From: Syntrophobacteraceae bacterium
GTDB taxonomy: Bacteria > Desulfobacterota > Syntrophobacteria > Syntrophobacterales > Syntrophobacteraceae
Assembly (NCBI GenBank): GCA_031292195.1
Contig: JARLHP010000198.1
Coordinates: 432-64,431, forward strand
Length of the DNA: 64,000 nt
Direction: 5' to 3'
This document shows, in pieces, positions 26,001-43,910 of the stretch (position 1 is the first letter of the stretch; each line of letters starts with the position of its first letter). Position numbers and translations under genes: made by a program. The notes beneath the pieces were generated by a model. It had not been told where the DNA came from. It worked only from the letters and a program-made list of their open reading frames with translations, and did no database searches.

Positions 26001-28190
26001 CAGGGCTTGGCGGTCTTCCGCCAGGCCATGTCCATTCGAATTCTTCCTCGGGAAGGCAGGAGAGGATATTCCAAAAGCGACTATGAGCCCCTTTCTCATT
26101 ATTACCGGGAAAGAATTTTCCAGGTCCACGGCATGAATGAATATGCCCGGCTGGGCGCCCGGGAAATCGTCAAAGCCCTGGAACTGGTGCTCTCGTATTT
26201 CACCTTGAGCAAAGCCGAATTTATCCGGCGTTATTTTCCCGGAAGAAAGGAAATGCTGGAGAGGGCGACCAGCCAGGAGTCCTACCGTAAAATGGTGGAA
26301 GACCTGGCCAACCCGGCGCAAAGTCAGATCGTATCGGGAGATGAAATCACCAACACCCTCATTCTGGCCGGCCCCGGGGCCGGCAAGACAAAGGTCGTCA
26401 TTCACCGCTGCGCCTACCTCATTCGCGTGCAAAGGGCCAATCCGGAAAGCATCCTGATCGTCTGCTTCAATCATTCGGCGGCCATGGAGCTGCGGCGAAA
26501 ACTCGTCCGGCTCATCGGAGAAGATGCGGCGGGCGTAACCGTCCAGACCTACCACGGGATCGCCATGCGCCTCACCGGAACCTCTTTTTCCGATCTCATG
26601 GAAAAAGGAACGGAGCAGCAAGCCCTGTTCGATCAGGTGATTGCGGACGGTGTCAGGCTGCTCCAGGGGGATGCGGATCTTCCGGGCTGGGAGCCGGACG
26701 CTGTCCGCGACAGGCTCCTAGGCAGGTTCCGCCACATTCTGGTCGATGAGTACCAGGATATCGACCAGAAACAGTACGACCTGGTGTCCGCCCTGGCCGG
26801 TCGAACCGAAAGGGACCCGGATACCAGGCTGACCATCTGCGCGGTGGGAGACGACGACCAGAATATTTACGCCTTTCGGGGCTCCAATGTCCGGTTTATC
26901 CTCAAATTTCAGGAAGACTATGAGGCCCGGATTCACTACCTGACGGAAAACTACAGGTCCACCCGAAACATCATCGATGCGGCCAACGCCCTTATCGCCC
27001 GGAATAAAGACCGCATGAAAACCGGTCATCCCATCAGGATAAACACGTCTCGAATCATCCTGCCGCCCGGAGGAAAGTGGGAGGAATTGGACCCGGTGTC
27101 CCGAGGCAGGGTCCGGATCATCGATGTGCCCAACGCTGCCGGCCAGGCGGCCGCCCTCCTGTCCGAACTCCACCGGATGGCCGCTCTTCAAAGCGATTTC
27201 CAATGGTCCGAGGTGGCCGTCCTCTCCAAAACCAGGGAGAGCCTCCACGAGGTCAGGGCATTTTGTGAACGCGGCGCCATTCCCGTAACCTGGACACTGG
27301 GCGGGAACCATCCCAATCTTTCCAGGATAAGAGAAATCGCCTCATTTCTGGGCGAGTGCAAATCCCGCCGCTCCGATTTTCTAAGAGCGAGCGACCTGGA
27401 AATGCTCCTGGAAAACATCACGGGTGAGCCGCGGGAAAACCCCTGGTGGAAGCTGCCGCGCTCGATTCTCACCTCCTGGAGGGAAGAAACCGGCGACGCC
27501 CGACTCCCCGTTTCCACGGCCATCGACCGTATCTACGAAGAACTGGCCGAGGTGCGGCGCGACCAGCGCATCGGAAACGGGCTATTTTTGAGCACCATTC
27601 ACGGAGTAAAGGGGCTGGAGTTTCCCCATGTTTTCATTCTCGACGGAAACTGGAAAAACCGCCCGTCGCCGCAAGCTTTGGAAGAGGAGCGAAGGCTCTT
27701 GTATGTCGCCATGACGCGGGCCCGGGAGACGCTTTCCCTCTTTGCCCGCGCGGATTGTATCAATCCCCACCTCTCAGCTCTTTCGGCAGACTTCGCCCTA
27801 AGAATAAAGGCAGCTTCCTCCCCGCCCCCCGATCTATCGGGCGCCCGCTACGAAACGTTAAGCATGAAGGATTTCATCCTGGGTTTTGCCGGCCGTTTCC
27901 CGGAAAATCACCCTATCCACCGCCAACAAAAAAAGCTCGGCCCCGGCGCCCCTCTTTCCATCCAAGCCAGGGGAGACCAGCTCTTCCTCTGCGACTCCGA
28001 ATCACATCCCGTTGCCAAACTCTCGCTAAAAGCCAGGGATTCATGGGCTGGACGCGTCGACAAGATCAGGTCGATCAGCCTGCTGGCAATGGTTCAGCGC
28101 ACTAAAGACGACGAGCGGCAGGATTTCCGAAAGTCCTGCCGGACCGATTCCTGGGAAATACCGTGGGCGGAAGTGGTCCTTGGGCCATGA
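23004..28190 (+). CDS. 1728-aa fusion: DnaQ-like DEDD 3'-5' exonuclease + RecQ-family SF2 helicase + UvrD/PcrA-family SF1 helicase + ~125-aa C-terminal tail
   Basis: Exonuclease motifs: VVLDLEAG, LLGHNLLGHDLPIL. RecQ motifs: FPTGGGKSICYQLPA, VFDEAHCLSKWGHDFRPDY, CFTATA, ATNAFGMGVDKSDVRLVLH, QEAGRAGRD. UvrD motifs: ILAGPGAGKTKVV, ILVDEYQDIDQKQYDL, VGDDDQNIYAFRG, YLTENYRSTRNIIDAAN, LSTIHGVKGLEFPHVFIL, LLYVAMTRARETL. Single uninterrupted ORF. Confidence 0.9.
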   Translation: MELDHFISKCVVLDLEAGSNRIFKIGAILGDTVFEKEKFDIGPALKELDRFAAPADFLLGHNLLGHDLPILRKANPALNIFDKPVIDTLFLSPLAFPENPYHRLVKDYKLVKDALSDPVADSRIALSLFCDQWEKFSKMAADGYSDILSFYRYCFLSAVKDGQPDFSGISAFLQISGAHDLGSQEARAVFTRHVSEQVCRTALRELFADAPDPGEKTPALSYVLAWLRVAGANSVLPPWVRKRFPAISTIAGKLRDVPCGHADCSWCRVTHDSSEQLKRFFAFSSFRDKPAGPTGQSLQKAVVDGGMAGRPLLAIFPTGGGKSICYQLPALVRHYRRGALTIVISPLQALMKDQVDNLASRTGTPYAAALNGLLTPPQRRDVLERTALGDVALLYVAPEQFRNDSFRKAIAQREIGAWVFDEAHCLSKWGHDFRPDYLYAGRFIREYSAEQTTPMAPVSCFTATAKQEVIEEIIEYFRRETGQELELFQGGLERENLHFEVRTCTRSEKLETIHLVLAEHLPESLSGGAIVYVATRRNADLTAQFLKSRGWPAAAFHAGLDPSVKNLVQEQFLAGDLQVIAATNAFGMGVDKSDVRLVLHADIPGSLESYIQEAGRAGRDLRDSKCVLLYDEQDIETQFKLGARSELSRKDIAQILRSIRRARKEGSEDVVLTAGEILRQEDLDTSFDAGDSTAETKVKTAIAWLERARFLERNENHTRVFQGRVLVQNLEEAEKRIAGLNLSATQKTRWLAILREIMNAPRDRGMSADSLAELSEFEKGAAGLNGPGKETPSQRVIRTLHDMAVAGLIEKGLVLSAYVRYKVKSHSHQVLENSCRIENEMLKIMREEIPDAADLGWLDLSLGKINSRIKNQAPECSVDSLRSILMSISMDGKGFGGGKAGLQYRHIYGDFYKVKLNLDWDSLLAMARKRQKIARAILDGIFSQIPSDTPPGADLLVSFSSEELAKTFQANLFLANEDVLTAIDRGLLFLHEQRAIILKQGLAVFRQAMSIRILPREGRRGYSKSDYEPLSHYYRERIFQVHGMNEYARLGAREIVKALELVLSYFTLSKAEFIRRYFPGRKEMLERATSQESYRKMVEDLANPAQSQIVSGDEITNTLILAGPGAGKTKVVIHRCAYLIRVQRANPESILIVCFNHSAAMELRRKLVRLIGEDAAGVTVQTYHGIAMRLTGTSFSDLMEKGTEQQALFDQVIADGVRLLQGDADLPGWEPDAVRDRLLGRFRHILVDEYQDIDQKQYDLVSALAGRTERDPDTRLTICAVGDDDQNIYAFRGSNVRFILKFQEDYEARIHYLTENYRSTRNIIDAANALIARNKDRMKTGHPIRINTSRIILPPGGKWEELDPVSRGRVRIIDVPNAAGQAAALLSELHRMAALQSDFQWSEVAVLSKTRESLHEVRAFCERGAIPVTWTLGGNHPNLSRIREIASFLGECKSRRSDFLRASDLEMLLENITGEPRENPWWKLPRSILTSWREETGDARLPVSTAIDRIYEELAEVRRDQRIGNGLFLSTIHGVKGLEFPHVFILDGNWKNRPSPQALEEERRLLYVAMTRARETLSLFARADCINPHLSALSADFALRIKAASSPPPDLSGARYETLSMKDFILGFAGRFPENHPIHRQQKKLGPGAPLSIQARGDQLFLCDSESHPVAKLSLKARDSWAGRVDKIRSISLLAMVQRTKDDERQDFRKSCRTDSWEIPWAEVVLGP

Positions 28191-28194
28191 ACCT

Positions 28195-28395
28195 CTCGCA
28201 AATCGCATAACCGCTCTGTGTCTCATCCCAATAGCCTGAGTCACCAGGTTGCATGAGGGTAGTGGGCAAGGGTGTGTCCATCCCAATAAGAATATCGTTT
28301 TCCATGGCGGCCCGGGCGGTGATGATGCGGTCGAAGGGATCGAAGAGATCAGCACATATGTCCGCTCACTCAGCTTTTCCGCTCCATAAGCATAG
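28195..28395 (-). pseudogene. vapC: Degraded vapC (PIN) copy with internal deletions (junction copy A)
   Basis: Nucleotide similarity to the intact vapC at 39684-40061. It retains YAYGAEKLSER (N-terminus) and DPFDRIIT..AAMENDIL-like 3' sequence, but the middle is missing and the frames are broken. Confidence 0.6.
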
Positions 28396-28470
28396 GTACT
28401 AAACGGTCCTGACACATTTCAACTTTATCGCATTATAGCATGAATGCATGAATTTCGCGTGTTGCACCCT

Positions 28471-28522
28471 TCGCTGCGCTGCCTGATGGATACAACGTGA
28501 TCGAAACCACCGGAAATGCCCC
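28471..28522. repeat. 52-nt conserved box, copy 1 (right border of junction copy A)
   Basis: tcgctgcgctgcctgatggatacaacgtgatcgaaaccaccggaaatgcccc versus 40779-40830 tcgatgcgcggcctgctggatacaacgtgatcgagaccaccggagatgcccc. Flanks on the far side are unrelated. Confidence 0.5.
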
Positions 28523-29470
28523 AGTCTGCCGTTCGCACACTGCCATCCCCCGGGGACTACTACGTGATCCGGGGCCATGTGAGAGGGGTCGGGCTTTGGT
28601 GTGGATCAGCAGGCATACCAGTTTGCCAACGGCCCGTTTGGGAGGGCGTGGGGTGTGCTCCACACTTGTGAAATTATCAAATTCCACCCGATGTCGCCTG
28701 AAGTGTTCACTGACTGCACCCTTCATTTTTACAATTTCCAATAAGCTTTAAGTTTCCAGGCAATAGGTGATCTATCAGATGATGGCGCAAGCTTTGCAAT
28801 TACGCAGCCCTCCTGGAGGCTGTTTCGGAAACTCGCCGCTTTTCCCTGTGCGAACTTCCCGTGGGCCTGAGGCAGCCATCAGGCCGTGGCACCGACATTA
28901 GAGAGCTGCGCGCGCCTGAGTTCCTGGAAGGAGGCGGTTTTCAGCGAGGGATAGGAGGGTTTACAATTCGGTCAGGAGCAAACTTCAAAGTGCTAAACGT
29001 GGACGAACGGCCCGCATCGGAACGTTGGACCCTTACAAGAAAACTGTTCCTGTTGCTGCTGGCGATATTTCCGCGGGCATCCGCTATCATTGTCACTCTA
29101 ATTGTTGAGCAACGTGCGTACGCCATCCTGGAGGCACCGGACAGGGCGAAACTCCTCGTGGACAGCTTTACGATCCGCGCACAAACCCGAAGAGATCGAC
29201 GTCTCAGATGCGGTCGGAGAGTCGGCGGTTACACAGACAGGCCGCTGTGCCGCACAATAGAAAAGCTGTGAATCAGTGAGCAACTCTATTGAAATGCTCC
29301 CCGGGGGAGTCCGGGGATTCCGGTGCGTGAAAGGCGTGACCTCATTTCTCACTAAAGTTTTGAGGCAGCCAATCCGACATAAGATTTGGAGTGTTGTTTC
29401 AAGAACGGCGGCTCATTTGCGCGATGTCGGGGAGCTCTCTCTCTCTTGCACAGTTGATAAGGTTCGATCT

Positions 29471-32400
29471 ATGAAATGGTTTCCTCAGCTTGGCTTGCGC
29501 CATCGATCCGTAATGATTGTACTGTTGGCCGGTATTCCCACTTTGACGCTGTTGCTCTATTCAGGCATGGAACTGCGTCGTCATGCCGTTCTCCATGCCA
29601 GGCAAGTTGCACTTCACTATGCAAGAGATCTTGCCAGAACCCATGAACGGATTGTCAACAACACCCATCAGGTTCTTTCAACCCTCTCGCAGTTACCCCC
29701 GATCCAGGGTCTTGATCCGGTTATGTGCAACAAGGTTTTCAAGGCTCTTCTGAAAGAATCTCATGTCTATACGGCATTGTTGGCCAGCAGGCCGGATGGA
29801 ACTGTTTATTCCAGTGCCCCGGCGATTACTGGACCGTTAAATGTTGCTCATGAGGGGTGGTTCCGGCATGGCGTCGAGACCAGGCATTTTGCCATGGGTC
29901 GCTATGAGATTGGCAAAATCTCCGGAAAAGCTGCAATGGTTCTAGCCCAGCCGGTTTTTGACGATACGGGAGAACTGAAAGCAGTAGTCGCCGCAGGAAT
30001 AGATCTCGACTGGCTAAGACAAACTCTGGCCAGGACACAGCTTCCCCAAGGCACGACTTTCAGCGTCACCGATTCGACCGGCGCCGTGCTCGCCCGCTTC
30101 CCCAACAACGAAAAGTACGCAGGAAAATCGATAGACGAGCTGCCTATATTCAGGCGCATGTCAAACCTGCGGGAAGGGATTGCCGAGGGAAAGGGAATCG
30201 ACGGGGTTCAGAGAATCTATGGTTTTGTTCCTTTGATTCATGCCCCGCGGCTAGTCCAGGTGAGAGTCGGAATTCCGATGACAGTGGCCTTCGCGAAGGC
30301 TAATCGAAGTCTTATTTTCAGCATTGTCCTATTTGTCATTATCATTATGCTAACACTTGCTCTGGCCTGGATTGGGGCGGGGCATTTCGTAGTGCGGCCC
30401 ATTGTTAATCTCAGCAAATTTGCCGCCTGTGTTTCAGATCGAAATCTTAGTATCCGTTGTGGTCCGGCTTATACGAGTGGTGAATTGGGAGTTCTGGAGC
30501 GCGCTTTCGATCTTATGGCCGAATCGCTTGAGCATCGCGAAGCTGAGCGCAAAAGAGCTGATGATCTATCCCAAATAAAGGGCAGGGCTCTGAGCTTGCT
30601 CAGCCGGTGCAATAAAGTCGTTGTTCGTGCTGTTAATGAGCCGGAGCTTTTGCATGTTGTTTGCCGGCAGATAATTGAAGTCGGAGGGTATCGTTTTGCG
30701 TGGGTCGGTTTTGCCGAAGATGATGAAGATAAGACCATCCGTCCGGTGGCGCATTGCGGATACGAGGATGGATATCTTGAAACAATCAAGGTCAATTGGG
30801 CTGAGGCTGAATCGGAAACAAACCGTAGCGCGGGAGCAATTGCCATTAGAACGGGGGAACCGGTGGTGAGTCAGAATATTTTATCCGACCCCAAATTTAC
30901 CGCATGGCGCGAAGAAGCCGCCAAACGCGGTTATGCCTCTTCCATTGCTCTTCCAATGCGTGATGATCAAGGGCGCTCGTTCGGTGTATTGAGAATTTAC
31001 GCAGGGGAACCTGATGCTTTCGGTTCCGAAGAAATAAATCTTCTCGAAGAACTTGCGGAAGATTTGGCCTACGGAATACGTACTTTGCGCATGCGGGATC
31101 AGCGTAATAGAGCCGAGAAGGCTCTGCTGGAACAAGAACATTACTACCGGTCTCTTATATTCAATATGCATGACGATATCATGGTAGTTGATAAGTCATT
31201 CGTAATTAAAGACATTAACAAGGATATAATGGGCACAACGGGTTTACGGCGAGAGGATATGATCGGTCGCCATTGTTTCGACGTTGCCCATGGAGCCGAT
31301 GAGCCTTGTAGTAAAAGAGGAGACGCCTGTCAGCTTCAAGAGGTATTTAAAACGGGTATACCCCAAATCTGTCGCCATGAGCACAACACGCAGGATGGAT
31401 CGAAAGTATGGGTTGATATTCTTTTTTCAGCTTTGAAAGATGATAGCGGTGAAATTACTCATGTCATTGAAGCGTCACGCGATGTAACCAAGGAAGTGGA
31501 ATTGCGCCAACAATTTCGTCAGGCACAGAAAATGGAAGCTATTGGTACATTGGCTGGAGGCATAGCACATGACTTCAACAACATCATTGGCATAATTCAA
31601 GGCTATTCGGAACTTTTGACGCTCGATATGCCTGAAGATTCGGACGGGAATTTATATGTCCAAAACATTTTGACGGCTGGACTTCGTGCAAAAGAACTCG
31701 TGAAACAAATACTTGCCTTTAGCCGGAAGGGCGAGCAGGAAAGGCTGCCTCTTCGGCTGAGCGTAATGATACAGGAGTCGCTTAAGCTTCTACGGGCAGC
31801 ATTGCCGTCTACAATTGAGATTCGCCAGGATTTGTCTACCGCGCGTAGGGTCGACATCTTGGCCGATGCAACCCAAATTCACCAGGTGCTCATGAACCTT
31901 TGTACGAACGCCGCCCACGCCATGGGCGAGAACGGAGGCGTCCTTACCGTCAGTTTATCGGAAGCGGAGTTTTCGGCCGTCGATTTAAACCACATTCCGG
32001 ATACGAGTCCCGGGCGCTACGTCTGCCTTGAGGTCGGGGACACCGGCCATGGTATGGATCGGGCCACCATTGAGAGGATATTTGAACCCTACTTTACCAC
32101 CAAGGGCCTGGGAGAAGGAACCGGGCTCGGGTTGGCCGTGGTGCACGGCATCGTGAAAAGCCATGACGGGGCAATAACGGTCGAAAGCGAACCCGGAAAA
32201 GGCACTTCATTTCGGGTATTCTTTCCGGTCGTCGAGAGCATTGGCGCCCCCGGCACTAAATCCGACTCGGAATATACTCAGATCCCCAGAGGGAAAGAGC
32301 ATATCCTCCTGGTCGATGATGAGGCGAGATTGGCTAACGCTGTGCAGCTAATGCTCGAGCGGCTTGGCTACAGGGTCTCACTGTGTAGGGACGGTATGCA

Positions 32401-32653
32401 CGCCCTCGATGTTTTCAGCTCACACCCGGAGAGCTACGATTTGGTCATCACCGACCAGACGATGCCTCACATGACGGGTTTCCAACTTGCCCGCAAGCTA
32501 ATCGAAATTCGACCGCGGATACCGATCCTGCTTTGTACCGGGTTTTGCGATTCCAGCACACAGGAACGCGCAAAAGCCTTGGGCATCCGCAATGTCCTGA
32601 TGAAGCCACTGTCGATACAGCAAATGGCGGAGACCATTCGCCGCGCCTTATAA
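29471..32653 (+). CDS. Hybrid sensor histidine kinase (periplasmic Cache-like domain, HAMP, GAF, PAS, HisKA, HATPase_c, REC)
   Basis: TM-bounded periplasmic domain. GAF (FAWVGFAEDDEDKTIRPVAHCGY...IALPM...FGVLRIYAGEP), H-box (GGIAHDFNNIIGII), G-boxes (DTGHGM, GTGLGLAVVHGIV), REC (ILLVDDE...VITDQTMPHMTG). Start at ATG 29471 (MKWFPQ...), not the track start 29276. Confidence 0.9.
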   Translation: MKWFPQLGLRHRSVMIVLLAGIPTLTLLLYSGMELRRHAVLHARQVALHYARDLARTHERIVNNTHQVLSTLSQLPPIQGLDPVMCNKVFKALLKESHVYTALLASRPDGTVYSSAPAITGPLNVAHEGWFRHGVETRHFAMGRYEIGKISGKAAMVLAQPVFDDTGELKAVVAAGIDLDWLRQTLARTQLPQGTTFSVTDSTGAVLARFPNNEKYAGKSIDELPIFRRMSNLREGIAEGKGIDGVQRIYGFVPLIHAPRLVQVRVGIPMTVAFAKANRSLIFSIVLFVIIIMLTLALAWIGAGHFVVRPIVNLSKFAACVSDRNLSIRCGPAYTSGELGVLERAFDLMAESLEHREAERKRADDLSQIKGRALSLLSRCNKVVVRAVNEPELLHVVCRQIIEVGGYRFAWVGFAEDDEDKTIRPVAHCGYEDGYLETIKVNWAEAESETNRSAGAIAIRTGEPVVSQNILSDPKFTAWREEAAKRGYASSIALPMRDDQGRSFGVLRIYAGEPDAFGSEEINLLEELAEDLAYGIRTLRMRDQRNRAEKALLEQEHYYRSLIFNMHDDIMVVDKSFVIKDINKDIMGTTGLRREDMIGRHCFDVAHGADEPCSKRGDACQLQEVFKTGIPQICRHEHNTQDGSKVWVDILFSALKDDSGEITHVIEASRDVTKEVELRQQFRQAQKMEAIGTLAGGIAHDFNNIIGIIQGYSELLTLDMPEDSDGNLYVQNILTAGLRAKELVKQILAFSRKGEQERLPLRLSVMIQESLKLLRAALPSTIEIRQDLSTARRVDILADATQIHQVLMNLCTNAAHAMGENGGVLTVSLSEAEFSAVDLNHIPDTSPGRYVCLEVGDTGHGMDRATIERIFEPYFTTKGLGEGTGLGLAVVHGIVKSHDGAITVESEPGKGTSFRVFFPVVESIGAPGTKSDSEYTQIPRGKEHILLVDDEARLANAVQLMLERLGYRVSLCRDGMHALDVFSSHPESYDLVITDQTMPHMTGFQLARKLIEIRPRIPILLCTGFCDSSTQERAKALGIRNVLMKPLSIQQMAETIRRAL

Positions 32654-32748
32654 GAACACAGGAGCCTGACGAATAAGCGATTGGATATCAAAGACACCCT
32701 CGTCGGAGCAGTCGCTAACATCATAGACCGGAAACAAGTCGAGAGACA

Positions 32749-35700
32749 ATGGTAGATAAAAACGAATTCGTGAAGAATATTTTGGACTCCCTTCCGCATC
32801 CCTTCTATATCATTGACGCTAATGACTACACGCTTAAAATGGCCAACTCCGCCGCTGCTCCGGATGGCCTGCCCCCGAATGTGACCTGTTTCCAGCTGAC
32901 ACACGGGACGGATAAACCCTGCGAAGCTCCCCGGCATTGCTGCCCATTGGAAACGATTAAACGAACCGGGAAGTCTGTGACTATCGAACATGTCCATTAT
33001 GATATGGAAGGAAACGCCAGGCAATTCGAGATCCACGCTCATCCGGTATTTGACAGCAACGGAAACGTCGTTCAGATCGTTGAATGCATGTTGGATATCA
33101 CCGAGCGCAGGAAAGCGGAGGAAGAGCTGGATTTATATGCTGAAATTACCAGGAATATTGCTGAAGGCGTAGTCCTTGCCAGGGTTAGTGACACTGAGAT
33201 TGTTTACGCCAACCACAAATTTGAAGAGATGTTCGGCTATGACCCGGGCGAGCTGATTGGGAAACCTATTTCCGTAGTCAATGCCCCCGGCGACAAATCT
33301 CCGGAAGAGCTGGCAAAGATGATTCAGAAACCCCTGAAGGAAAAGGGTACGTGGCAGGGTGAGGTTCATAATATCAAGAAGGACGGAACGCCTTTCTGGT
33401 GCAATGTCACAGTCTCTACGTTTGATCACTATAAGTACGGGGAGGTCTGGGTTTGGGTTCCTAGAGACATCACTGAGCGCAGGCAGACCGAGGATGCGCT
33501 GCGCAAGAGTGAGACCATGTACCGAACGCTCGTCGAGAACATCCCTCAAAAGGTCTTTATGAAGGATACGGACTCCCGCTATGTATCCATCAACGAGCAT
33601 TTTGCCAGGGACCTCGGCATTCGAGACGCAGAAGTTTTTGGTAAAACAGACTACGATTTTTTCCCCCGGGAGCTTGCCGACAAATACCGGAGGGACGATA
33701 AGCGAATCATAAAGACGGGTGTGACTGAGGATCTCGAGGAACACTACATGATGGAAGACCAGGGAATGTGGGTCCAGACTATCAAAGCTCCCGTCAAAGA
33801 CGTTAATGGCAAGGTCGTCGGTGTTTTCGGAATTTTCTGGGATATCACCGATCGCAAGAGGGCTGAAAATGCGCTGCGCGAAAGCGAGGAGCGTTTCTCC
33901 AGATTCTTCCGGGCTTCTCCGGTCGGCATCACTATCAGCAGATTGTGCGATGGTCAATGTATCGAGGCAAATGATGCTTTTCTCCGCTTATTCGGGTACG
34001 AACGAGAGGAAGTCATCGGCGGAAATCTGTTTGAATTGAAAAAGTGCATTGATCCTAAAGAACGGGAAACATTGACACAAAGACTTACGGAGCAGGGAAG
34101 GGTCGAGGCTTTTGAAACCCGCCTCCGCTTGAAATCCGGCGAGATTATGTACGCTATCACCTCGGCGGAAATCATCGAACTGGCGGGACGGCAATGTATT
34201 CTAAGCCTCACTTATGATATCACCGCCCGCAAGCGAGCGGAGCAGGCTCTTGTTCTGGAGCGAAACAAGTTTCGTCGCTTTCTCGACTCTTTGCCCTTCG
34301 GGGTCTACATAGTTAATGATCAGTACAATATCGAGTACGTCAACTCCGTACTATCGAGCGATTTTGGTCCTATAGAAGGACGCAAATGCCATGACTATTT
34401 TCATGGTCTTCTCGAACCTTGTGATTGGTGTAAGAACAGCGAAGTTTTCGACGGTAAAACGGTGCAATGGGAGTGGTTCTCGGAGAAGACGGGCAAGACC
34501 TTCCACCTCATCGACAGCCCTGTCTATTCCGTGGATGATCGAATTTCCAAGATCGAGGTATTTTTCGACATCACCGAGCGCAAGCGGGCGGAAGCTGAAA
34601 AGATCGAGATGGAACAGCGCATTCAAAAGCTGCAAAAGGCGGAAAGCCTCGGTCGCATGGCCGGCTCTATCGCCCATCATTTTAACAACAAGCTGGGCAC
34701 GGTGTTGGGAAACCTTGAACTGGCTCTCTATGATCTGCCTGAAGAATCAGAAGTTCGCGCGACTATAGTTGAATCCATGAAAGCCGCGCGTCAAGCGGCT
34801 GATATCAGTCAACGGATGCTGATGTATCTCGGGCAGGCAACCGGGCGCTATGAGCCCGTCGACCTTGTGGATACAATCCGTGAATCCCTCCAACTCTCCA
34901 GCCTGTCCGTTCCCCGGCATGTGCGTTTAAAGACCGATTATCCGCTGATGAGACCGATTATCCAGGGGAATAATGCCCAGATAAAGCAGATCCTTGCCAA
35001 CCTGGTTTCAAACGCGGTGGAGGCCATAGGCCAAAATGATGGTGATATCACTGTGGCAATACAAGTGACGCAGAGCGAGAAGATCAAAAGATTGCGTTTT
35101 TTCCCCGTTGATTGGGAGCCGAAGGCGGAACAATATGTCTGCCTTTCGGTATCCGATACAGGCTGTGGCATGGATTTGACTACCATCGAGAAAGTCTTTG
35201 ACCCGTTCTTTTCGACCAAATTTCCGGGGCGCGGTCTGGGCTTGTCCATTCTCCTGGGGTTGGTGCGCACGCATGCTGGAGGAACAACAGTCGTGAGCGA
35301 GCCTGACCGAGGCGCCACTTTCAGGGTCTTCTTCCCCTTGTGCGCCCTTGAAGCAGTTCCGCCCGTAAAGGAAGAACCTCTTGCCTCCGGACCGGCACAG
35401 AAAGGAGGATTGGTGCTACTGGTAGATGATGATCCCGGGATCCGCAAAATGGCCGAATCCATTCTTGAGAAAATGGGTTATGGGGTACTTGGGGCTTCCA
35501 GCGGGGCCCAAGCCTTGAAATTCTTCGCGGAAGACCCTTACCGGGTCCGATTAGTGATCACCGATCTCACCATGCCGGGAATGGACGGGTGGCAGATCCT
35601 GACGGCCCTGCGAAAAATCCGGCCGAACATTCCGGTGGTTCTTGCCAGCGGATACGACGAGGCGCACGCCATGAGCAGAGACTATGCACACCAGCCCGAT

Positions 35701-35781
35701 GTATTTTTACACAAGCCTTACTCGATGAGTGAACTCAAGTCTGCAATCGATGAGGCTTTGCAGGCGGTGAGCAGGGGGTAA
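32749..35781 (+). CDS. Multi-PAS hybrid sensor histidine kinase (about five PAS, HisKA, HATPase_c, REC), cytoplasmic
   Basis: Repeated DITERK/DITDRKRAE PAS linkers. H-box GSIAHHFNNKLGTV, G-boxes SDTGCGM and GRGLGLSILLGLV, REC LVLLVDDDP...VITDLTMPGMDG. No TM segment. Confidence 0.9.
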   Translation: MVDKNEFVKNILDSLPHPFYIIDANDYTLKMANSAAAPDGLPPNVTCFQLTHGTDKPCEAPRHCCPLETIKRTGKSVTIEHVHYDMEGNARQFEIHAHPVFDSNGNVVQIVECMLDITERRKAEEELDLYAEITRNIAEGVVLARVSDTEIVYANHKFEEMFGYDPGELIGKPISVVNAPGDKSPEELAKMIQKPLKEKGTWQGEVHNIKKDGTPFWCNVTVSTFDHYKYGEVWVWVPRDITERRQTEDALRKSETMYRTLVENIPQKVFMKDTDSRYVSINEHFARDLGIRDAEVFGKTDYDFFPRELADKYRRDDKRIIKTGVTEDLEEHYMMEDQGMWVQTIKAPVKDVNGKVVGVFGIFWDITDRKRAENALRESEERFSRFFRASPVGITISRLCDGQCIEANDAFLRLFGYEREEVIGGNLFELKKCIDPKERETLTQRLTEQGRVEAFETRLRLKSGEIMYAITSAEIIELAGRQCILSLTYDITARKRAEQALVLERNKFRRFLDSLPFGVYIVNDQYNIEYVNSVLSSDFGPIEGRKCHDYFHGLLEPCDWCKNSEVFDGKTVQWEWFSEKTGKTFHLIDSPVYSVDDRISKIEVFFDITERKRAEAEKIEMEQRIQKLQKAESLGRMAGSIAHHFNNKLGTVLGNLELALYDLPEESEVRATIVESMKAARQAADISQRMLMYLGQATGRYEPVDLVDTIRESLQLSSLSVPRHVRLKTDYPLMRPIIQGNNAQIKQILANLVSNAVEAIGQNDGDITVAIQVTQSEKIKRLRFFPVDWEPKAEQYVCLSVSDTGCGMDLTTIEKVFDPFFSTKFPGRGLGLSILLGLVRTHAGGTTVVSEPDRGATFRVFFPLCALEAVPPVKEEPLASGPAQKGGLVLLVDDDPGIRKMAESILEKMGYGVLGASSGAQALKFFAEDPYRVRLVITDLTMPGMDGWQILTALRKIRPNIPVVLASGYDEAHAMSRDYAHQPDVFLHKPYSMSELKSAIDEALQAVSRG

Positions 35782-36195
35782 TTATTGTTTATCCGCTGCG
35801 ACTCAATTGGGCGGTTGTCCTCAATGGAAATATGGGTACAGAGCCGCCAATTCCTTTGCGGGAGCTTCGGCCGGCTCCTGGATCGTCGTCAGGAGGCGAT
35901 CCAGAGGCTACGCGCCTGCAGCACCTCCAAGGCTGTATTCGGTTGGTTCACCCTGACCACAACACCCGCCAGGCACAGCACAGCCTCACGAATGGGACCC
36001 ACCGCAAGGTCTGCCAAGGTCGCTTCCCCAGTCCTGCATACAGTCATTTGGGAACCAAACAGTACACGGGTCCAGTTTTCCTGCAACGACACTAGCCGAA
36101 TAAGGGGGAAGCCACTCTGCACATACACTCCAGTATATACATAAATAATAGTTACCATCTAACTATCTTACTCATTCAGACACAATAGCCAGTTA

Positions 36196-38109
36196 ATGAT
36201 GGATGCTAAAATGAAACAGATGAATTTTCGTCAAAAGCTTATAGCATCAATAGTCCATATAGTAATAGTTGTAATATCTGCATTAGGCCTTATATTTTAT
36301 TATACCGCGTTTAATGCCATATTAGACATACAAAACAATAACATGAGTGTTATTGTGCAAAAAACTTGTACTGAATTGAATGGCTGGATAGCCAACCATG
36401 AACATACTGCCCTTACTTACAGTCAGGCTGCAGTCTTTAAAGCTGCATGCCGTGGCGAGAGAATGGATGAGGCTCAAAAGCGACTCGTAATCTACCATAA
36501 GGATTCACCAATATATGAGAACATATTCCTGGCCGACGCCGGCGGCAAACTCTTCATGGATTCCATTGGCGGCAAATCGGTAGGAGTTGAGTTGTCCAAA
36601 CTGCCCGGCTTTAAAATAAACTTCGACAAGGCTCGTAAAGGGCAGATTTGGGTGGGGGACGTAGGTGCCTCACCTGCCACGGGAAGGCCGGTTTCTCTGA
36701 TCACCGCCCCGATTATGGTCGATGGAAAACTCACTGGAATCGTGGGAACTCCCGTCGATTTGACCACCTTCTCCGATAAGTTCAGTGAGTCCAGAATCGG
36801 GAAATCAGGGTATCTTTTCATGGTGGATTCCAATGGGCTTATCTTCGCTCACCCGGATAAGCAGACCATTCTGAAGACCAGGATATCCGATTTCGATTGG
36901 GGCAAAAGAATGCTTGAGGAAAGAAGTGGGAGCTTCATCTATAAATACAAGGGCGTCGATAAATTCGCATTCTTCAGCAACAAGAACAAGAAGGGCTGGC
37001 TTGTCGCGGCAACCATACCGAAAAGCGAACTCGTCGAATCGTTGGGACGTATCGGCTACTTATCGGCTATTGGGGGGTTCGTGGCCGTATTGATTATTGT
37101 ATTTCTGGTATGGCTGGTGACCCGGAGTGCGTTCAGGGTTATCAGCAAGAATGCTGAAGGACTGATGGAGGCGAGTATGCAAATTCTTTCGGCATCGGGT
37201 CAGGTTTCATCGGCCTCCCAGGAACTTGCTGAAGGAGCATCCGAACAGGCGGCGGCCATCGAGCAAATCTCGTCCTCTTTGGAAGAGATGTCCTCCATGA
37301 CAAAGCAGAATGCCGCAAATGCAAAACAGACCAACAATGTGATGGACTCGGTCGGCCATGTGATTTCATCGGCCACTACTTCGATGGGCCAGCTTGATAC
37401 CTCCATGGGCCAAATATCGAAGGCAAGCGAAGAGACCTCAAAGATCATTAAAACCATTGACGAAATCGCATTCCAAACGAACCTGCTGGCCTTGAACGCC
37501 GCTGTGGAAGCGGCCAGGGCGGGCGAAGCGGGAGCAGGATTCGCCGTTGTTGCCGACGAAGTAAGAAACCTTGCCATGCGGGCGGCGGAGGCTGCAAAAA
37601 ACACTGCCGACCTCATCGAAGGCACGGTGAAGAAGGTAAAGGACGGCTCTGAAATAGTCGCGAAGACGAGCGCCGTATTCGCCGAATTGTCAACCAGCAC
37701 CGGGAAGATGGGCGAATTCGTCGGTGAGATAACGGCCGCTTCCCTGGAGCAGGCTCAAGGGGTTGAGCAAATCTCTAAAGCGCTAAATGAAACGGATACA
37801 GTTGTCCAGCAAAACGCCGCAAATGCCGAGCAATCTGCTTCCGCCTCTGAACAGATGAGTGCCCAGGCAGAACAAATGAAACAATTTGTGGACGAATTGG
37901 TAATCCTGGTCGGAGGGGCCGATGCCCATTCAAGCATCGAGAGGGCTAAAAAATTGAAGAATGCCGCAAATGAACCGAAGATGATTGCAACATACGGAAA
38001 AAAGGGAAATAGCCATTTAAAGGCCGGCGATGGAAAGGCTCCCGCCCACAATGGCAAGCGCGGTCCAGAGCAAATCATTCCTTTTGATGGCGAAGTTTCC
38101 GATTTTTAA
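36196..38109 (+). CDS. Methyl-accepting chemotaxis protein with a dCache-type periplasmic sensor
   Basis: TM1, a Cache-like domain (...[17 protein letters not shown]...), TM2, HAMP, and the highly conserved signalling hairpin ([40 protein letters not shown]). The 5' part is AT-rich. Confidence 0.9.
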
Positions 38110-38465
38110 TGCAATGAGTAATTAAATGTGAGGGGCAAGCAGGCGGGACAATTGCCGGATGCCTGCCCCTCCGGCCGGCCGCGCCCGAGTTTCGGGTCCA
38201 TAGGAAAACGACAAGTCAACATGACTGTTAATTCAATGACATACAGGACTTGTCGAAAAATGTCGTGTTACTACAGACTGCGTTTTCTACCAGCGACCTC
38301 AAGAACCGGCTTTGGCATTGGAATCTTCAGCTTCTCAAGGATTTCTCACAGATACCCTCATGTATCTCGTTGCGTCTAAAGAATCTGTTTGAGCCTGTCT
38401 CGCATTGTTGGGGGTTGGGCATTGGGGGCATCGGGTCTGACCAGCCCATGGCTCTCAGCTTCATC

Positions 38466-38836
38466 CCCGCCCCCCGATCTATCGGGCGCCCGCTACGACA
38501 CGTTAGGCATGAAGGATTTCATCCCGGGTTTTGCCGGCCGGTTCCCGGAAAATCACCCTATCCACCGCCAGCAAAAAAAGCTCGGCCCCGGCGCCCCTCT
38601 TTCCATCCAATCCAGGGGAGACCAGCTCTTCCTCTGCGACTGCGAATCACATTCCCGTTGCAAAACTCTCGCTAAAAGCAAGGGATTCATGGGCTGGACG
38701 CGTCGACAAGATCAGGTCGATCAGCCTGATAGCAATGGTTCAGCGCACTAAAGACGACGAGCAGCAGGATTTCCGAAAGTCCTGCCGCACCGATTCCCGG
38801 GAAATACCCTGGGCGGAAGTGGTCCTGGGGCCATGA
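38466..38836 (+). pseudogene. Duplicate of the last ~370 nt of the giant helicase gene, frameshifted (junction copy B)
   Basis: My hand alignment to 27811-28190 finds about 18 substitutions plus one extra T near 38651. Track ORFs 38389..38751 and 38531..38836 each carry one half of the tail sequence (SSPPPDLSGARYDTLGMKDF... / ...KLSLKARDSWAGRVDKIRSISLIAMVQRTKDDEQQDF...). Confidence 0.8.
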
Positions 38837-38955
38837 ACCTCTGCTACCAGGTTGGATTGAGGGAAGTGGTCAAGGATGTGTTCATCCCTGGTTGTAAGAA
38901 TTTCGTTTTTCATGGCGGCCTGTGAACCGCACGAACGGGTGTGGTCCCGGAGGCG

Positions 38956-39486
38956 TCATTTATAAATTATCGGGCGGCCCGTGAGCGTTTCCATTCGCTC
39001 GAGGAACCTGTGCATCTCGCCGGCTGGTTTCATGTTCTTGTCGAGCCTTAGCAGTTCACGGTCCGAGTCGTCGTACAAAGTATAGACCACCATTGCGGGC
39101 AGAGTATCCAGCGGTTTTGTCTTGTACCTGGAACGACCGATATCATTCCATTTTCTGAGTTCCTCGCGAATATCCTCACGGACCACCTTTTTCACCTCAC
39201 TTATCGGGATTCGCCGGGAACCGGAAGGCTGCGAGACTTCGATCTCGTCCAAATCGCACCGCACCTTTCGACCGTGGTTCTGAAACGCTTTGCGGCACAT
39301 AAAAGTAAGCCAGGCCACTCCCAGGATCATCATCCCGTATTTCTTCCATAAAGGGGTATGTTCCGGCACGAAGAAAGACGGAACGATCATGAGCAGTCCA
39401 AACAGAAGGCCCCAGAAAAGGTTGGCCTTCCACGTTTCCGCAGGCTCACTCAAAAAGATGACATCCCCATCAGCAGCCATAATCAC
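38956..39486 (-). CDS. Hypothetical membrane protein (two TM helices + ~100-aa soluble C-terminal domain)
   Basis: 176-aa ORF. LFWGLLFGLLMIVPSFFV and MMILGVAWLTFMC are hydrophobic helices. No recognisable motif. Sits between junction copies B and C. Confidence 0.55.
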   Translation of the reverse strand: MIMAADGDVIFLSEPAETWKANLFWGLLFGLLMIVPSFFVPEHTPLWKKYGMMILGVAWLTFMCRKAFQNHGRKVRCDLDEIEVSQPSGSRRIPISEVKKVVREDIREELRKWNDIGRSRYKTKPLDTLPAMVVYTLYDDSDRELLRLDKNMKPAGEMHRFLERMETLTGRPIIYK

Positions 39487-39604
39487 TCCCTTTCCCTGTT
39501 TGCTACGCTGTTTTGCCTGCCTGTTTGATGAACTTTCTTCGCATCCAAACCAAACGATTTTGTGATAAGGTCGAGCGGAGACCCGACTCCTTCTTTTTCA
39601 GCTC

Positions 39605-39635
39605 AAGACGACGAGCAGCAGGATTTGGGCCATGA
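39605..39635. repeat. 31-nt relic of the helicase gene 3' end (start of junction copy C)
   Basis: aagacgacgagcagcaggattt + gggccatga matches 28107-28128 and 28182-28190 of the intact gene, with the intervening ~55 nt (about 28129-28181) missing. It is followed by the same vapC 3' flank as after 28190. Confidence 0.5.
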
Positions 39636-39683
39636 ACCTCTCGCATCGCATAATCGCTCTGTGGTTCATACCAATAGCCTGAG

Positions 39684-40061
39684 TCACCAGGTTGCATGAG
39701 GGTAGTGGTCAAGGATGTGTCCATCCTTGGTAATAAGAATATCGTTTTTCATGGCGGCGTGGGCGGTGATGATACGATCGAAGGGGTCGCGGGTCCAGCT
39801 TTGGTGCATGGCGTTTCTAACAACTTCCCGGAAATCCTTTCCGCAGACCTCCAGCGCTATTCTTTCAGCAAGATACTCGTAGATGGTCTGAGGCGACACC
39901 GCAATTTTCCCGATTTGCCGGAGAAATTCCAACTCCAGCAAAACCATGGGAGAGATCAGCACACAGGGGCAATCCTCGATCAACTTCAAAGCCCGCTCAC
40001 TCAGCTTTTCCGCTCCATAAGCATACATCCATGCCACCACGTGTGAGTCCAGGTAGGTCAT
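39684..40061 (-). CDS. vapC: VapC-family PIN-domain toxin (intact)
   Basis: MTYLDSHVV..., LLELEFL, DPFDRIITAHA: conserved acidic PIN residues in the expected order. 125 aa. Overlaps the stop of the upstream antitoxin. Confidence 0.85.
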   Translation of the reverse strand: MTYLDSHVVAWMYAYGAEKLSERALKLIEDCPCVLISPMVLLELEFLRQIGKIAVSPQTIYEYLAERIALEVCGKDFREVVRNAMHQSWTRDPFDRIITAHAAMKNDILITKDGHILDHYPHATW

Positions 40062-40294
40062 ATGTCAGGACTCCACTCTCCGGACCAGTCACTGTGGACC
40101 AGTTCCTCGGGGTCGCCTGCGATGCAGTCGGGATGGGGACGCAGTCCGGCCATCTTGGAATCCCTCTGCGCCGAAGAAATGATTATCTTTTTACCTTTGC
40201 GCTCCACCTCAAGGGGAATATTTGACTGGAGCACATCGTCCAGCAATTTATAAATGTTTTTACGAAGCTCGGTTGCTGTTACTTTTCGGGGCAT
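40058..40294 (-). CDS. Phd/YefM-type antitoxin
   Basis: MPRKVTATELRKNIYKLLDDVLQSNIPLEVERKGKKIIISS is the Phd/YefM N-terminal fold pattern. ATG 40294 was chosen because the track start 40330 lies at or above the predicted transcription start. Confidence 0.8.
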   Translation of the reverse strand: MPRKVTATELRKNIYKLLDDVLQSNIPLEVERKGKKIIISSAQRDSKMAGLRPHPDCIAGDPEELVHSDWSGEWSPDI

Positions 40295-40338
40295 CTCAGT
40301 TTTCCGCTTGTCTATTCGCTTCGAAAGCACGTACTTAT

Positions 40339-40367
40339 ATTTTATGCTGTTACGTACGTATTGTCAA
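40339..40367 (-). promoter_or_regulatory. Sigma-70-type promoter of the phd-vapC operon (TTGACA-N17-TAAAAT) with an embedded ACGTACGT palindrome
   Basis: Minus strand reads TTGACAatacgtacgtaacagcaTAAAAT: perfect -35, 17-nt spacer, 5/6 -10, about 45 nt upstream of ATG 40294. Confidence 0.55.
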
Positions 40368-40778
40368 AAATGGATTCGCCACATTTTCAAAATCATTCAG
40401 GAGCCTTGACCGTCCTTATTTCCCGTCAAATTCCGGGACGGGGTCATTTTTAGTCAACGCGCCATCGCCCTTCCAGGCCAACGAGAGCTGCAAAGCCTCA
40501 TGCCTGTGTTTTTCCACTGAACAATTTTTGTAGCGGTTCATAATGCCGGACTGTCAAAAGGAATCCAAGGATGCGGACACGCATAATCCGCCTGGTCAAC
40601 CTCGAAGCCAATTCTTTACTCACCCGCCCCATTTGCCTGAACAGGGCGTTTTATTCCCCGCCGGACCTCATTGTCCCGTCCGACTCAGCCGCCCGGAGAT
40701 GAGTTTCCCCGGGTGACCAGCAAGACAACTCCACCGATGATCACCAGGCCCCCTATCCAGCCCCCCCGGGAAGGAGTT

Positions 40779-40830
40779 TCGATGCGCGGCCTGCTGGATA
40801 CAACGTGATCGAGACCACCGGAGATGCCCC
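40779..40830. repeat. 52-nt conserved box, copy 2 (right border of junction copy C)
   Basis: See 28471-28522. Only a few mismatches by eye. Confidence 0.5.
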
Positions 40831-41086: not shown

Positions 41087-41614
41087 TCAGGAATCGCTTG
41101 ATAGAGCAGGGTCCCGCTCCTCCCTTCCGCTTCGTCGTTTTGCCTTGACCAAGGCCTGCTGCTGAAAGTTAATCTGCTTCCTGAGTCCGGAGATCCGCTT
41201 GTCCTGGTCGGCGACCTTCACCTCGGCATCGGCTAGCGCCCGCACCAAAGCGTCGATTTGAGCAGCCTGCCGTTCGTTGACCTTCACCAGCATATCTCTT
41301 TGGGCCAGAGCCTTTGAAAACTGGCCTTTAAGCCTTGTCTCCAGCTCGGCTACCCGTTTTTCAAAAGCTTCCGTCAGATAGTGTTGAACCTCCGGAGGAA
41401 AATCGGTGATGTGGGTTTTCTTCACCTCTCCGGGATTGTGCCGGAGCTTCCACAATGTCAAACATTGGCGCACTCTGTCGATATTGCCGGTATTGAGTTC
41501 CTCGCTGATCGAATCCACGGTGGGCAGCCTGCCGGTCCATACCATGCGGTCGGCGACCGCCGTCACATCTTTTATTTTTACATCGGAGTCGTTCTGACTG
41601 ACTTTGCTTTTCAT
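41087..41614 (-). CDS. KfrA_N-like DNA-binding coiled-coil protein
   Basis: IKDVTAVADRMVWTGRLPTVDSISEELNTGNIDRVRQCLTLWK resembles the KfrA N-terminal HTH (V.AAAD.L...G..PT...VR..LG.GS...I...L..W), followed by ~110 aa of coiled coil. ATG 41614 (MKSKVSQ) was chosen over the track start 41980. Confidence 0.6.
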   Translation of the reverse strand: MKSKVSQNDSDVKIKDVTAVADRMVWTGRLPTVDSISEELNTGNIDRVRQCLTLWKLRHNPGEVKKTHITDFPPEVQHYLTEAFEKRVAELETRLKGQFSKALAQRDMLVKVNERQAAQIDALVRALADAEVKVADQDKRISGLRKQINFQQQALVKAKRRSGREERDPALSSDS

Positions 41615-41837
41615 TTTCAGCCTTCCATTGAGTCGGCTCTTTTTCGGAAGTATTTCTTTACCATGGAGTAAAGAATCACTCTGCGAACCATTCCTCTGAA
41701 CCGAAGAGAATAACAGCCGGTAAAAACGGCGGTTTCGGACGCACACGGCAGGCTGCGCAGGTTGCCGTGTGCGTCTCAAGGGCGTTTGACCGGTATCTGT
41801 CGAAAGCCACCCCTTTTTGCCCGCCGCACTACATAAC

Positions 41838-42350
41838 TCACGGATGGCAGTCGTCCAGCTTATGCCAAACTTTCGCTGATTCATCCGCACATTCCGAATT
41901 CGCCTTTTCGCCTCTTTGGTGACTATCCCGCTCGGAGGCGATTTCATTTTCCAGCCGGGCAATCCGCCGGCTTTGTTCAACGACTCTCGAACAGGTTTCT
42001 TCGAGCGCCGTCTTTAAATTGTCGATCTGGACTGATTGCCGTCTATTGAGAGCAGTTAGCCGTTTTTTGTCCTTGTTGACCTCAGCATATTTGGCCTCGA
42101 GTTTTGCGTGGAGGGTGTGAAGGGTAATAACCTTGCGTTCGAACTCATCAGCCAGGAGATTTTGGACATTAGGGGGAATATCAGCGATATGAGTCCTTAC
42201 CAAATCAACATGACGCCCTTGGCTTTTCAGCCTCTCGGCAGCCGTCAGTCCCATGGTTGCGCAGGCCACTACCAGGGAAGGCCGGGTTTCGGCCTCCCCG
42301 ATGTGACGCTCCGTTGACCGAACCGAGTTATTAGCCCGGGTTCGCTTCAT
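41838..42350 (-). CDS. Paralogue of the KfrA-like coiled-coil protein
   Basis: THIADIPPNVQNLLADEFERKVITLHTLHAKLEAKY... aligns with THITDFPPEVQHYLTEAFEKRVAELETRLKGQF... of the downstream gene. ATG 42350 is preceded by GGAGGAGG. Confidence 0.5.
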   Translation of the reverse strand: MKRTRANNSVRSTERHIGEAETRPSLVVACATMGLTAAERLKSQGRHVDLVRTHIADIPPNVQNLLADEFERKVITLHTLHAKLEAKYAEVNKDKKRLTALNRRQSVQIDNLKTALEETCSRVVEQSRRIARLENEIASERDSHQRGEKANSECADESAKVWHKLDDCHP

Positions 42351-42396
42351 GTTTAGCACCTCCTCCAAGACCGTTGTTTTCAATGAATGTCCGAAC

Positions 42397-43434: not shown

Positions 43435-43508
43435 TTGTTTTTCCCTTTAGTATCGTTAACCGCTGCCGGCGGTTCTGAGGCCCGCGCCCGAAATCGGGCG
43501 CTTGCCGA

Positions 43509-43589
43509 TTAGAACCATTCCGGAAGAATCATGGCGACGACCAGATAAACAAAAAGAAACGCGGCGACGGCCGCTGTCAGGTAAAGCAT
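43509..43589 (-). CDS. kdpF: KdpF, small subunit of the Kdp ATPase
   Basis: My translation is MLYLTAAVAAFLFVYLVVAMILPEWF* (26 aa). It is a single TM helix ending in the KdpF-typical L.PE.F, with AAGGAG 8 nt upstream. Confidence 0.65.
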   Translation of the reverse strand: MLYLTAAVAAFLFVYLVVAMILPEWF

Positions 43590-43607
43590 TGGTGTAACTC
43601 CTTTGCC

Positions 43608-43712
43608 CTAAATTTTTTCGCAAGCCTTTACGAAGGCCATGCAGATTCCCATTAATGCCACGCCCAGAAAAAACATTGCAGGCAGCCAGGTTGTCAGGGT
43701 CTGTGGATCCAT
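43608..43712 (-). CDS. 34-aa hydrophobic peptide encoded upstream of kdpF
   Basis: My translation is MDPQTLTTWLPAMFFLGVALMGICMAFVKACEKI*, with AAGGAG 8 nt upstream. It lies between the sigma-54 promoter and kdpF. Confidence 0.4.
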   Translation of the reverse strand: MDPQTLTTWLPAMFFLGVALMGICMAFVKACEKI

Positions 43713-43834: not shown

Positions 43835-43910
43835 GAAAATGGAATCATGAAAACGTTGAAATTACAGCGACATGGAAGGACCTACAATAAGTGGAAACCG
43901 AAGGGATATT

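Follow-up and report, generated by a model that had tools for sequence, protein, structure and literature searches.

The locus described here lies in 64,000 nt of a Syntrophobacteraceae metagenome-assembled genome (MAG; GenBank assembly GCA_031292195.1, contig JARLHP010000198.1, positions 432 to 64,431 of the forward strand). This whole stretch is called the window, and all coordinates are counted from its first letter. It carries the gene for a large helicase, and the 3' end of that gene (the tail) is present three times: there are two copies of the 380-nt gene end, A and B, and a third, C, which is a relic of about 40 nt. Sequence of the toxin gene vapC trails every tail copy in the same register, and two different segments are enclosed, cargo 1 between A and B and cargo 2 between B and C. 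An initial annotation, made from the letters alone, had described the junction of helicase end and vapC as present three times around two cargos; a repeat finder and self-BLAST, with which repeats were located, agree, the coordinates it gave being off by no more than about 10 nt. Two large collections were also searched, 185,579 species-representative genomes, to which the source MAG itself does not belong, and the metagenome contigs of the Joint Genome Institute (JGI).

The helicase gene and the copies of its 3' end

The helicase gene (23004-28190, forward strand) is intact and encodes 1728 aa, in which Pfam recognizes a RecQ (DEAD/Helicase_C)-UvrD fusion. The protein is 100% identical to one encoded on a contig of 68.9 kb in a Syntrophobacteraceae MAG and has thousands of full-length homologues; its family consists of proteins of ~1730 aa that occur throughout Thermodesulfobacteriota, and the gene is chromosomal. 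The best homologue that is not identical shares 78% protein identity. Membership of a defense system, raised by PADLOC matches to DpdF, GajB, and PsyrT, was rejected as generic RecQ/UvrD similarity of a protein from a conserved full-length family.

Copy A of the tail (27811-28196, forward strand) is still attached to the gene and intact. It comprises the last 380 nt of the gene, about 127 codons plus the stop, and 6 nt beyond; alignment of orthologues identifies this repeated part as the conserved C-terminal domain, ending in WEIPW, and places the left edge of the duplication in a variable linker. Copy B (38456-38842, forward strand) is an orphan pseudogene that matches copy A at 95.3% identity over 387 columns (E = 4e-176). 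The initial annotation had counted about 18 substitutions and one extra T near 38651 in it; the inserted T is real, at 38652, and shifts the frame, whereas the substitutions number 17. Copy C (39602-39641, forward strand) retains only 25 + 15 nt around a 56-nt internal deletion: 39602-39626 matches 28102-28126 and 38748-38772 and is fused directly to GGGCCATGAACCTCT, from the region of the helicase stop codon. The two orphan tails differ in their left ends, B starting at the equivalent of 27811 and C at that of ~28102 (where C may be eroded), and in their right ends too. Decay of the tail grows with distance from the gene, from the intact copy A through copy B, with its frameshift and three radical replacements, to the ~40-nt relic of copy C.

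The differences between tails A and B carry some information on their history. Third codon positions account for 10 of the 17 substitutions (P = 0.027), and the Nei-Gojobori estimates of synonymous and nonsynonymous divergence are dS = 0.10 and dN = 0.03 (dN/dS = 0.30), with replacements below the neutral expectation (P about 0.03). The divergence at neutral sites matches that of the vapC remnants (9-18%). Polarized with the orthologues, copy B has the derived replacements L->P, S->C, and W->R at conserved positions, the last in the invariant W of WEIPW, and copy A has the derived replacements G->S and Q->R; three A/B differences are ambiguous. By these comparisons, the tail copies are neither a fresh duplication nor an assembler's repeat. 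Because the synonymous divergence is this high, replacements are too few for neutrality, and vapC has diverged to a similar extent, the copies are old or imported, and part of their divergence seems to have arisen under selection. Such divergence is compatible with an imported allele that then decayed, or with long decay in place, and 17 changes are too few to separate the two.

We compared the locus with the genomic contexts of the six closest helicase homologues (70%-78% protein identity; loci L001-L010). In all of these relatives the flank 3' of the helicase gene is non-syntenic, and they share no DNA with the window beyond the gene itself: L001-L010 contain no vapC-phd, no box (the short repeat described below), and no orphan tails behind the helicase orthologues. 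The empty site that the initial annotation proposed to seek in relatives was accordingly not found among them, nor was a donor arrangement, and no relatives of the helicase tail protein were found in JGI metagenomes. Because orphan tails are absent and the downstream flank is non-syntenic, L001-L010 give no sign that displacement of the helicase tail would be a general trait of the family.

Some of these loci have features of their own. In L004, a direct repeat of 125 nt (71%) stands on both sides of the helicase gene (9834-9955 and 15487-15609); in L009, an IS630-type DDE transposase lies 750 nt behind a truncated helicase call, with Bil-like defense genes upstream; and in L001, an element with a tyrosine integrase and a D5-type primase lies 5 kb downstream of the helicase. 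The gene calls P0006 and P0007 are truncated, although the DNA similarity to the helicase continues in L010.

The vapC-phd module, the box, and the cargo segments

Only the distal copy, C, has an intact vapC-phd pair. Its vapC (39684-40061, reverse strand) encodes a PIN-domain toxin of 125 aa (Pfam PIN, E = 5e-9), which is also the length of full-length homologues. The antitoxin gene phd (40058-40330, reverse strand; Pfam PhdYeFM, E = 3e-5, 24.1 bits, under the curated cut-off of 29.8) overlaps vapC by 4 nt; its true start is probably the ATG at 40294, for a product of 78 aa, and homologous genes of 78 aa are present in loci L011 and L013. A promoter-like site for the operon (40339-40367, read on the reverse strand from 40367; TTGACA, 17 nt, TAAAAT) matches sigma-70 at 11/12 positions and falls within a 690-nt cassette (39681-40370). 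With its 125-aa PIN toxin, upstream overlapping antitoxin, and strong predicted promoter, copy C has the organization of a type II VapC/Phd module, whereas copies A and B are dead fragments of one. The remnant in copy A (28197-28394, reverse strand) has a 2-nt indel and deletions of 4, 165, and 29 nt; it lacks both phd and the promoter. It aligns with copy C over 28180-28342 versus 39625-39789, a match that runs into vapC (88.6%, E = 5e-55), over 28344-28356 versus 39951-39963, and over 28362-28394 versus 39993-40025 (33/33); the open reading frame (ORF) that covers it has no Pfam match to the PIN domain. Copy B keeps no more than 77 nt, from the 3' coding part of the gene (38846-38922, reverse strand; 88% over 77 nt to 39686-39761), with the stop-proximal 45 nt deleted. 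Loss of function is expected in the extra vapC copies because they have no antitoxin gene of their own. The initial annotation had read the series in the same way, with internal deletions in A, a short 3' piece in B, and a tail relic followed by an intact operon and promoter in C.

The module is not tied to this gene. The cassette with its promoter is 88% identical to one in L011, which lies there between unrelated genes, and it recurs at 88%-91% in other contexts; the vapC of copy C is 90.7% identical to that of L012 and 78% to that of L013. Because the L011 cassette and the L012 gene stand in unrelated contexts, the vapC-phd cassette must circulate without dependence on the helicase. Over the stretch of vapC common to all copies, copy C is about equally close to copy A (91%-92%) and to L011 and L012 (92%-94%), and copy B is the most diverged (82%-85%). 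In our view vapC-phd marks the junction and is carried along as a passenger; there is no indication of a role for it in recombination.

Copies A and C are terminated by the box, 53 nt at 28470-28522 and 40778-40830 that are identical at 48/53 positions (90.6%, E = 3e-13), after which similarity ends, as the initial annotation had noticed. Box A is the final shared sequence ahead of cargo 1, and box C marks the limit of similarity with copy A, beyond which lies a decayed accessory stretch. The initial annotation had suggested a search for the box elsewhere, and a pattern of its core has 0 matches in the species-representative genomes and 0 in the JGI metagenome contigs. A role as an RNA or hairpin site was considered and rejected: no Rfam family is found in the window, the box has no stable fold, shuffled sequence folding better than it does, and a synonymous substitution pattern is seen in none of its reading frames. 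The box looks like the last surviving piece of a shared flank and not like a recombination site.

Cargo 1 (28523-38455, forward strand; 9.9 kb) contains, by Pfam, signaling genes: a 136-aa ORF (28861-29271), a dCache-HAMP-GAF-PAS hybrid histidine kinase (29276-32653), a five-PAS hybrid histidine kinase (32749-35781), a 119-aa ORF (35785-36144), and a dCache methyl-accepting chemotaxis protein (36196-38109). The five PAS domains of the second kinase form periodic repeats of 351-375 nt (33094-34614; 63%-74% DNA identity), a periodicity that indicates probable internal domain amplification. GC content at third codon positions (GC3) is 0.52-0.59 in the cargo 1 genes and 0.63 in the 119-aa ORF, compared with 0.65-0.74 in the helicase and most core genes, and nearly all genes between 28.5 and 45.3 kb have values of 0.52-0.63 (a kdpC fragment has 0.67). 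The composition of the cargo is foreign-like. No close relatives of the first cargo 1 kinase were found in the species-representative genomes, where its matches were distant and at the level of paralogues, with at most 55% identity on the kinase core and no shared context.

Cargo 2 (38949-39492, reverse strand) is a fragment with a single gene, and it is flanked by filler of unknown origin on both sides (38923-38948, 26 nt; 39493-39601, 109 nt). Its ORF (38956-39480, or to 39486 with a GTG start) encodes a protein of 174 aa in which two membrane helices are predicted and the C-terminal part is soluble; it has no match in Pfam, NCBIfam, PADLOC, or PHROGs. A European Nucleotide Archive contig (L095) matches cargo 2 at 88% over exactly 38949-39492, that is, over the gene alone; in L095 (525-2647) the homologue is the second gene, 2 nt from stop to start behind a gene for a 531-aa HDOD/HD/Hpt protein. 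Cargo 2 is thus a fragment from an operon such as that in L095, and a lone gene taken from an operon points to illegitimate joining of fragments, not to a self-contained element. The family is small, with only 8 homologues among 5.8 billion proteins, and the coupling in L095 suggests that it may be a signaling-related membrane partner. In the window the gene stands alone, on the strand of the phd-vapC operon and downstream of it, and no promoter of its own is evident.

Origin of the repeated junction

Since the source is a MAG, one has to ask whether the arrangement is a chimera, in which coexisting strains, or a free circle of tail, vapC, box, and cargo 1, were stitched together through the 95%-identical repeat. 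The repeats do differ by a strain-like 5%, and the copies have exact stretches of 31-48 nt in common. We nevertheless hold a chimera to be highly improbable. Unique sequence lies on both sides of each joint, and 38455/38456, one of three candidate joints located (the others are 38922/38923 and 39601/39602), ties unique cargo sequence to the middle of the helicase gene, which merging two collinear strains cannot produce. Moreover, an independent assembly of run SRR23300977 contains a Logan contig (L094, 901 nt) that equals window positions 38758-39658 at 99.9%, with one mismatch. The joints of copy B, cargo 2, and copy C are therefore present in a second read set too, and by this match the B-cargo 2-C arrangement is not peculiar to one assembly. 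L094 ends close to the sole 31-mers that its stretch shares with copy A, as is expected from a k-mer graph when all copies are in the same reads, and its end positions are a hint of copy A in that data set.

We read the locus as a recombination scar, a string of displaced 3' ends that were anchored by homology behind a core chromosomal helicase gene, and we give this reading about an even chance. The anatomy, the divergence values, the foreign-like composition of the cargo, and the lack of recombinase and att features are observed; for direction, order, and mechanism alike, we infer the following course. The starting arrangement would have been the helicase gene, a convergent vapC-phd cassette, a spacer, the box, and downstream DNA. 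At least twice, DNA would have entered from close relatives (~10% neutral divergence) that had the same helicase-vapC junction and other downstream genes, and this DNA would have been added, not swapped in. One end would have been joined by RecA-type homology in the helicase gene and the other by an illegitimate joint inside or just behind the resident tail, that is, by homology-facilitated illegitimate recombination; an equivalent route would be a circular fragment with a copy of the tail, integrated by a single crossover. Each event would leave the helicase intact, add a vapC remnant and cargo, and push the older tail, vapC, and everything else downstream. Afterwards, the orphan tails would have decayed and the extra vapC copies, having no antitoxin, would have been lost to deletions, with the distal vapC-phd kept intact.

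Several features of the repeats bear on this. Because vapC trails each tail in register and A and C share the box, the repeated unit is a piece of chromosome, the tail with its neighbor, and the differing left and right ends of the orphan tails fit random joints. The initial annotation had postulated at least two separate insertion or recombination events at one junction, and this holds up; the gene-attached copy is intact, and decay rises with distance from it. Its analogy to accretion at tRNA or tmRNA att sites does not, given that the repeat unit is not a short core but the tail plus the neighboring vapC, in A and C as far as the box, and that B and C differ in their left ends.

The same observations weigh on the two explanations that take the joints to be genuine. 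In the first, the helicase 3' end contains an att site at which two elements integrated in tandem; each brought a replacement tail, and their integrases were lost, as in cis-mobilizable elements (CIMEs), or are encoded elsewhere. Direct repeats of the 3' end of the gene do bracket the cargo (387 nt at 95.3% between A and B, 25 + 15 nt in the relic of C), the proximal copy is intact and the distal ones more decayed, and tandem integrase-less CIMEs of 1.2-13 kb, as well as microCIMEs, have been recorded at protein-gene 3' ends (PMC7563491). An attP site would not, however, carry the neighboring vapC or the sequence up to the box into which the repeats reach, and insertion by homology explains the pattern better because a site-specific element would not carry the chromosomal neighbor of its target. 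The match is 95% along all 387 nt, and no identical core stands out in it; with different starts in B and C, no fixed crossover point is apparent. As the initial annotation had also noted, no recombinase gene is visible: the ORFs scanned across the 64-kb window include no recombinase or transposase, the cargo edges have no match to recombinase remnants even at E <= 1, and neither the 64 kb nor the cargo edges yielded an integrase, excisionase, relaxase, or remnant of these. The cargo has no conjugation or mobilization remnants that would point to ancestry in integrative and conjugative elements (ICEs) or integrative and mobilizable elements (IMEs); cargo 1 has signaling genes only and cargo 2 is a fragment of a single gene, for one membrane protein. 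No tRNA or tmRNA gene is present in the window. An integron cassette array was also rejected, there being no attC-type inverted repeats and no intI or other integrase, and the box folding worse than shuffled sequence; inverted repeats of at least 25 nt are absent from 26-42.5 kb. We consider integrase-mediated accretion decidedly unlikely.

The other explanation has no horizontal input: the tail and vapC were duplicated in place, and long neutral decay, deletions, and small insertions followed. Such a duplication would yield exactly such a novel joint as 38455/38456, tails and vapC remnants have diverged to a similar degree (at synonymous sites in the tails), and the derived damage in B (L->P, W->R, and the frameshift) is what is expected of a dead copy. 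But the other units have nothing that corresponds to cargo 2 or to the sequence after box C, so that extra insertions and deletions are needed, and the cargo has GC3 below that of the core. Had B been dead from the start, a dN/dS of at least 0.5 would be expected; the observed 0.30 is lower, which is weak evidence. The intact copy A also has derived replacements. Bacterial genomes have a deletion bias, under which pseudogene remnants with ~10% divergence beside intact cargo would be unusual. Duplication in place seems to us unlikely on balance.

There are also points that weigh against displacement by homology. No relative is near enough to provide an empty site or a donor, the best helicase homologue having 78% protein identity, and the events are therefore inferred from one sequence. 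The joints between copy A and cargo 1 and between cargo 1 and copy B are supported by a single metagenome assembly, the MAG. The dN/dS of 0.30, resting on 17 changes, fits imported functional alleles or in-place duplication with decay. A recombinase from beyond the window could also have acted in trans. Every model needs at least one illegitimate joint, at 38455/38456, in addition to those around cargo 2. The events could have had either polarity, in that an anchor in the helicase with a joint in the tail and an anchor in the right flank with a joint at the end of cargo 1 lead to one and the same product.

Type II toxin-antitoxin modules are known for post-segregational killing, and accordingly an intact addictive pair at the distal end may have disfavored recombinants by replacement and favored addition. 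A bolder version would make an addictive vapC-phd behind a core gene into an accretion point that needs no recombinase. Replacement would kill, because a double crossover over the downstream region would delete the toxin-antitoxin genes, and survival would be limited to additions that retain the distal pair, so that units of tail, dead vapC, and cargo would pile up. Because they are bracketed by 387-nt repeats with perfect stretches of 31-48 nt, the units could loop out as RecA circles and re-enter relatives by single crossover, as mobile cassettes that depend on homology only. We think this version very unlikely.

Related systems and other features of the window

The initial annotation had presented a setting at the 3' end of a protein gene as new, which the literature does not bear out: tandem integrase-less CIMEs are known at the 3' ends of fda, rpsI, and rpmG (PMC7563491), and strings of displaced ends occur in rhs and in type VI secretion system (T6SS) arrays (PMC2935791, PMC5361080). 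In rhs, displaced 3' ends are strung behind an intact gene, and a circular intermediate with a single homologous crossover has been proposed; the region downstream is poorer in GC and contains frameshifted orphans as well as pieces of the core, variable in length and nearly identical to the gene (PMC2935791). For rhs and the T6SS effector-immunity arrays of Vibrio, homology-facilitated illegitimate recombination was proposed (PMC5361080). The same paper refers to de Vries and Wackernagel 2002 and Prudhomme et al. 2002 for this process in transformable bacteria, and a conjugational case has been described (PMC3240628).

The likeness of our locus to the rhs, mafB, cdiA-CT, and Vibrio T6SS arrays is close: an intact gene is followed on the same strand by orphan 3' fragments of varying length that are near-identical to it, the orphans are frameshifted, GC is lower downstream, intervening genes are carried along, and there is no integrase. 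Here, however, the gene is a RecQ/UvrD helicase and not a polymorphic toxin, the displaced ends are homologous (95%) and not alternative tips, with the cargo varying instead, and there is no toxin-immunity logic apart from the neighboring vapC-phd. Where CIMEs, ICEs, and IMEs accrete at protein-gene 3' ends or at tRNA or tmRNA genes, direct repeats of the 3' end likewise delimit tandem islets and the gene stays intact, and CIMEs are also islets without recombination genes (1.2-13 kb, compared with 10 kb and 0.5 kb here). The repeats of our locus differ in being long and diverged, in including the flanking gene, and in having variable boundaries, and no ICE or IME stands in tandem with the islets, which have no integrase remnant and no conjugative or mobilizable ancestry. 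The locus therefore resembles a 3'-end displacement array without belonging to the rhs/maf/cdi/T6SS class, and resembles CIME accretion only in outline. With homology-facilitated illegitimate recombination it would share a one-sided homologous anchor and an illegitimate joint that add DNA beside a conserved gene with no dedicated recombinase; that process has been shown experimentally in few species at low frequency, whereas here it is deduced for an uncultured Syntrophobacteraceae lineage that is not known to be competent or to have a transfer route.

The locus is a tidy example and not a discovery, being one locus in one MAG with no comparators. If displacement by homology is the right reading, the displaced-end architecture is not limited to polymorphic toxin genes and would also occur behind an ordinary repair-type helicase in an uncultured syntroph, and two hybrid kinases and a chemoreceptor, as accessory sensory genes, would have been gained without the machinery of mobile elements. 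This would bear on the origin of many integrase-free hot spots of gene gain, and it suggests a role for the toxin-antitoxin pair in biasing recombination toward addition.

Beyond box C, the stretch at 41087-45316 is decayed. It contains two overlapping coiled-coil ORFs with weak KfrA_N-like and Gp157/SMC-like matches, a kdpC fragment that matches the profile from position 30 to position 102 (of 182) and is not accompanied by kdpA or kdpB, and, in two ORFs (43911-44495 and 44381-45316), a split sigma-54 response regulator. These broken genes may be real pseudogenes or assembly frameshifts. A plasmid origin was considered for 38.9-42.5 kb and the KfrA_N-like ORF and rejected, there being no match in PLSDB at the DNA or protein level.

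The remaining window is ordinary chromosome, with cobalamin, potassium uptake, and hopanoid genes, and contains some further repeats. Intergenic repeats of ~120-145 nt that are 88%-97% identical lie at 14028-14172, 56133-56252, and 56346-56465; the two copies near 56.2 kb are 213 nt apart, and a related copy is found in L095 (2836-2894), just downstream of the cargo 2 homologue. By their distribution, they would be a family of elements common to these Syntrophobacteraceae, similar to repetitive extragenic palindromes (REP) or miniature inverted-repeat transposable elements (MITE). A GC-rich, hairpin-like repeat of 42 nt (86%) is present just 5' of the helicase gene (22803-22844) and just after the DAO gene (47057-47098), and this pair brackets the helicase gene and the entire low-GC3 stretch. 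Finally, a low-GC gene (61967-62659; GC 0.41, GC3 0.36) that is compositionally foreign to the window encodes a thioester-domain (TED) protein with a PEP-CTERM-like end.

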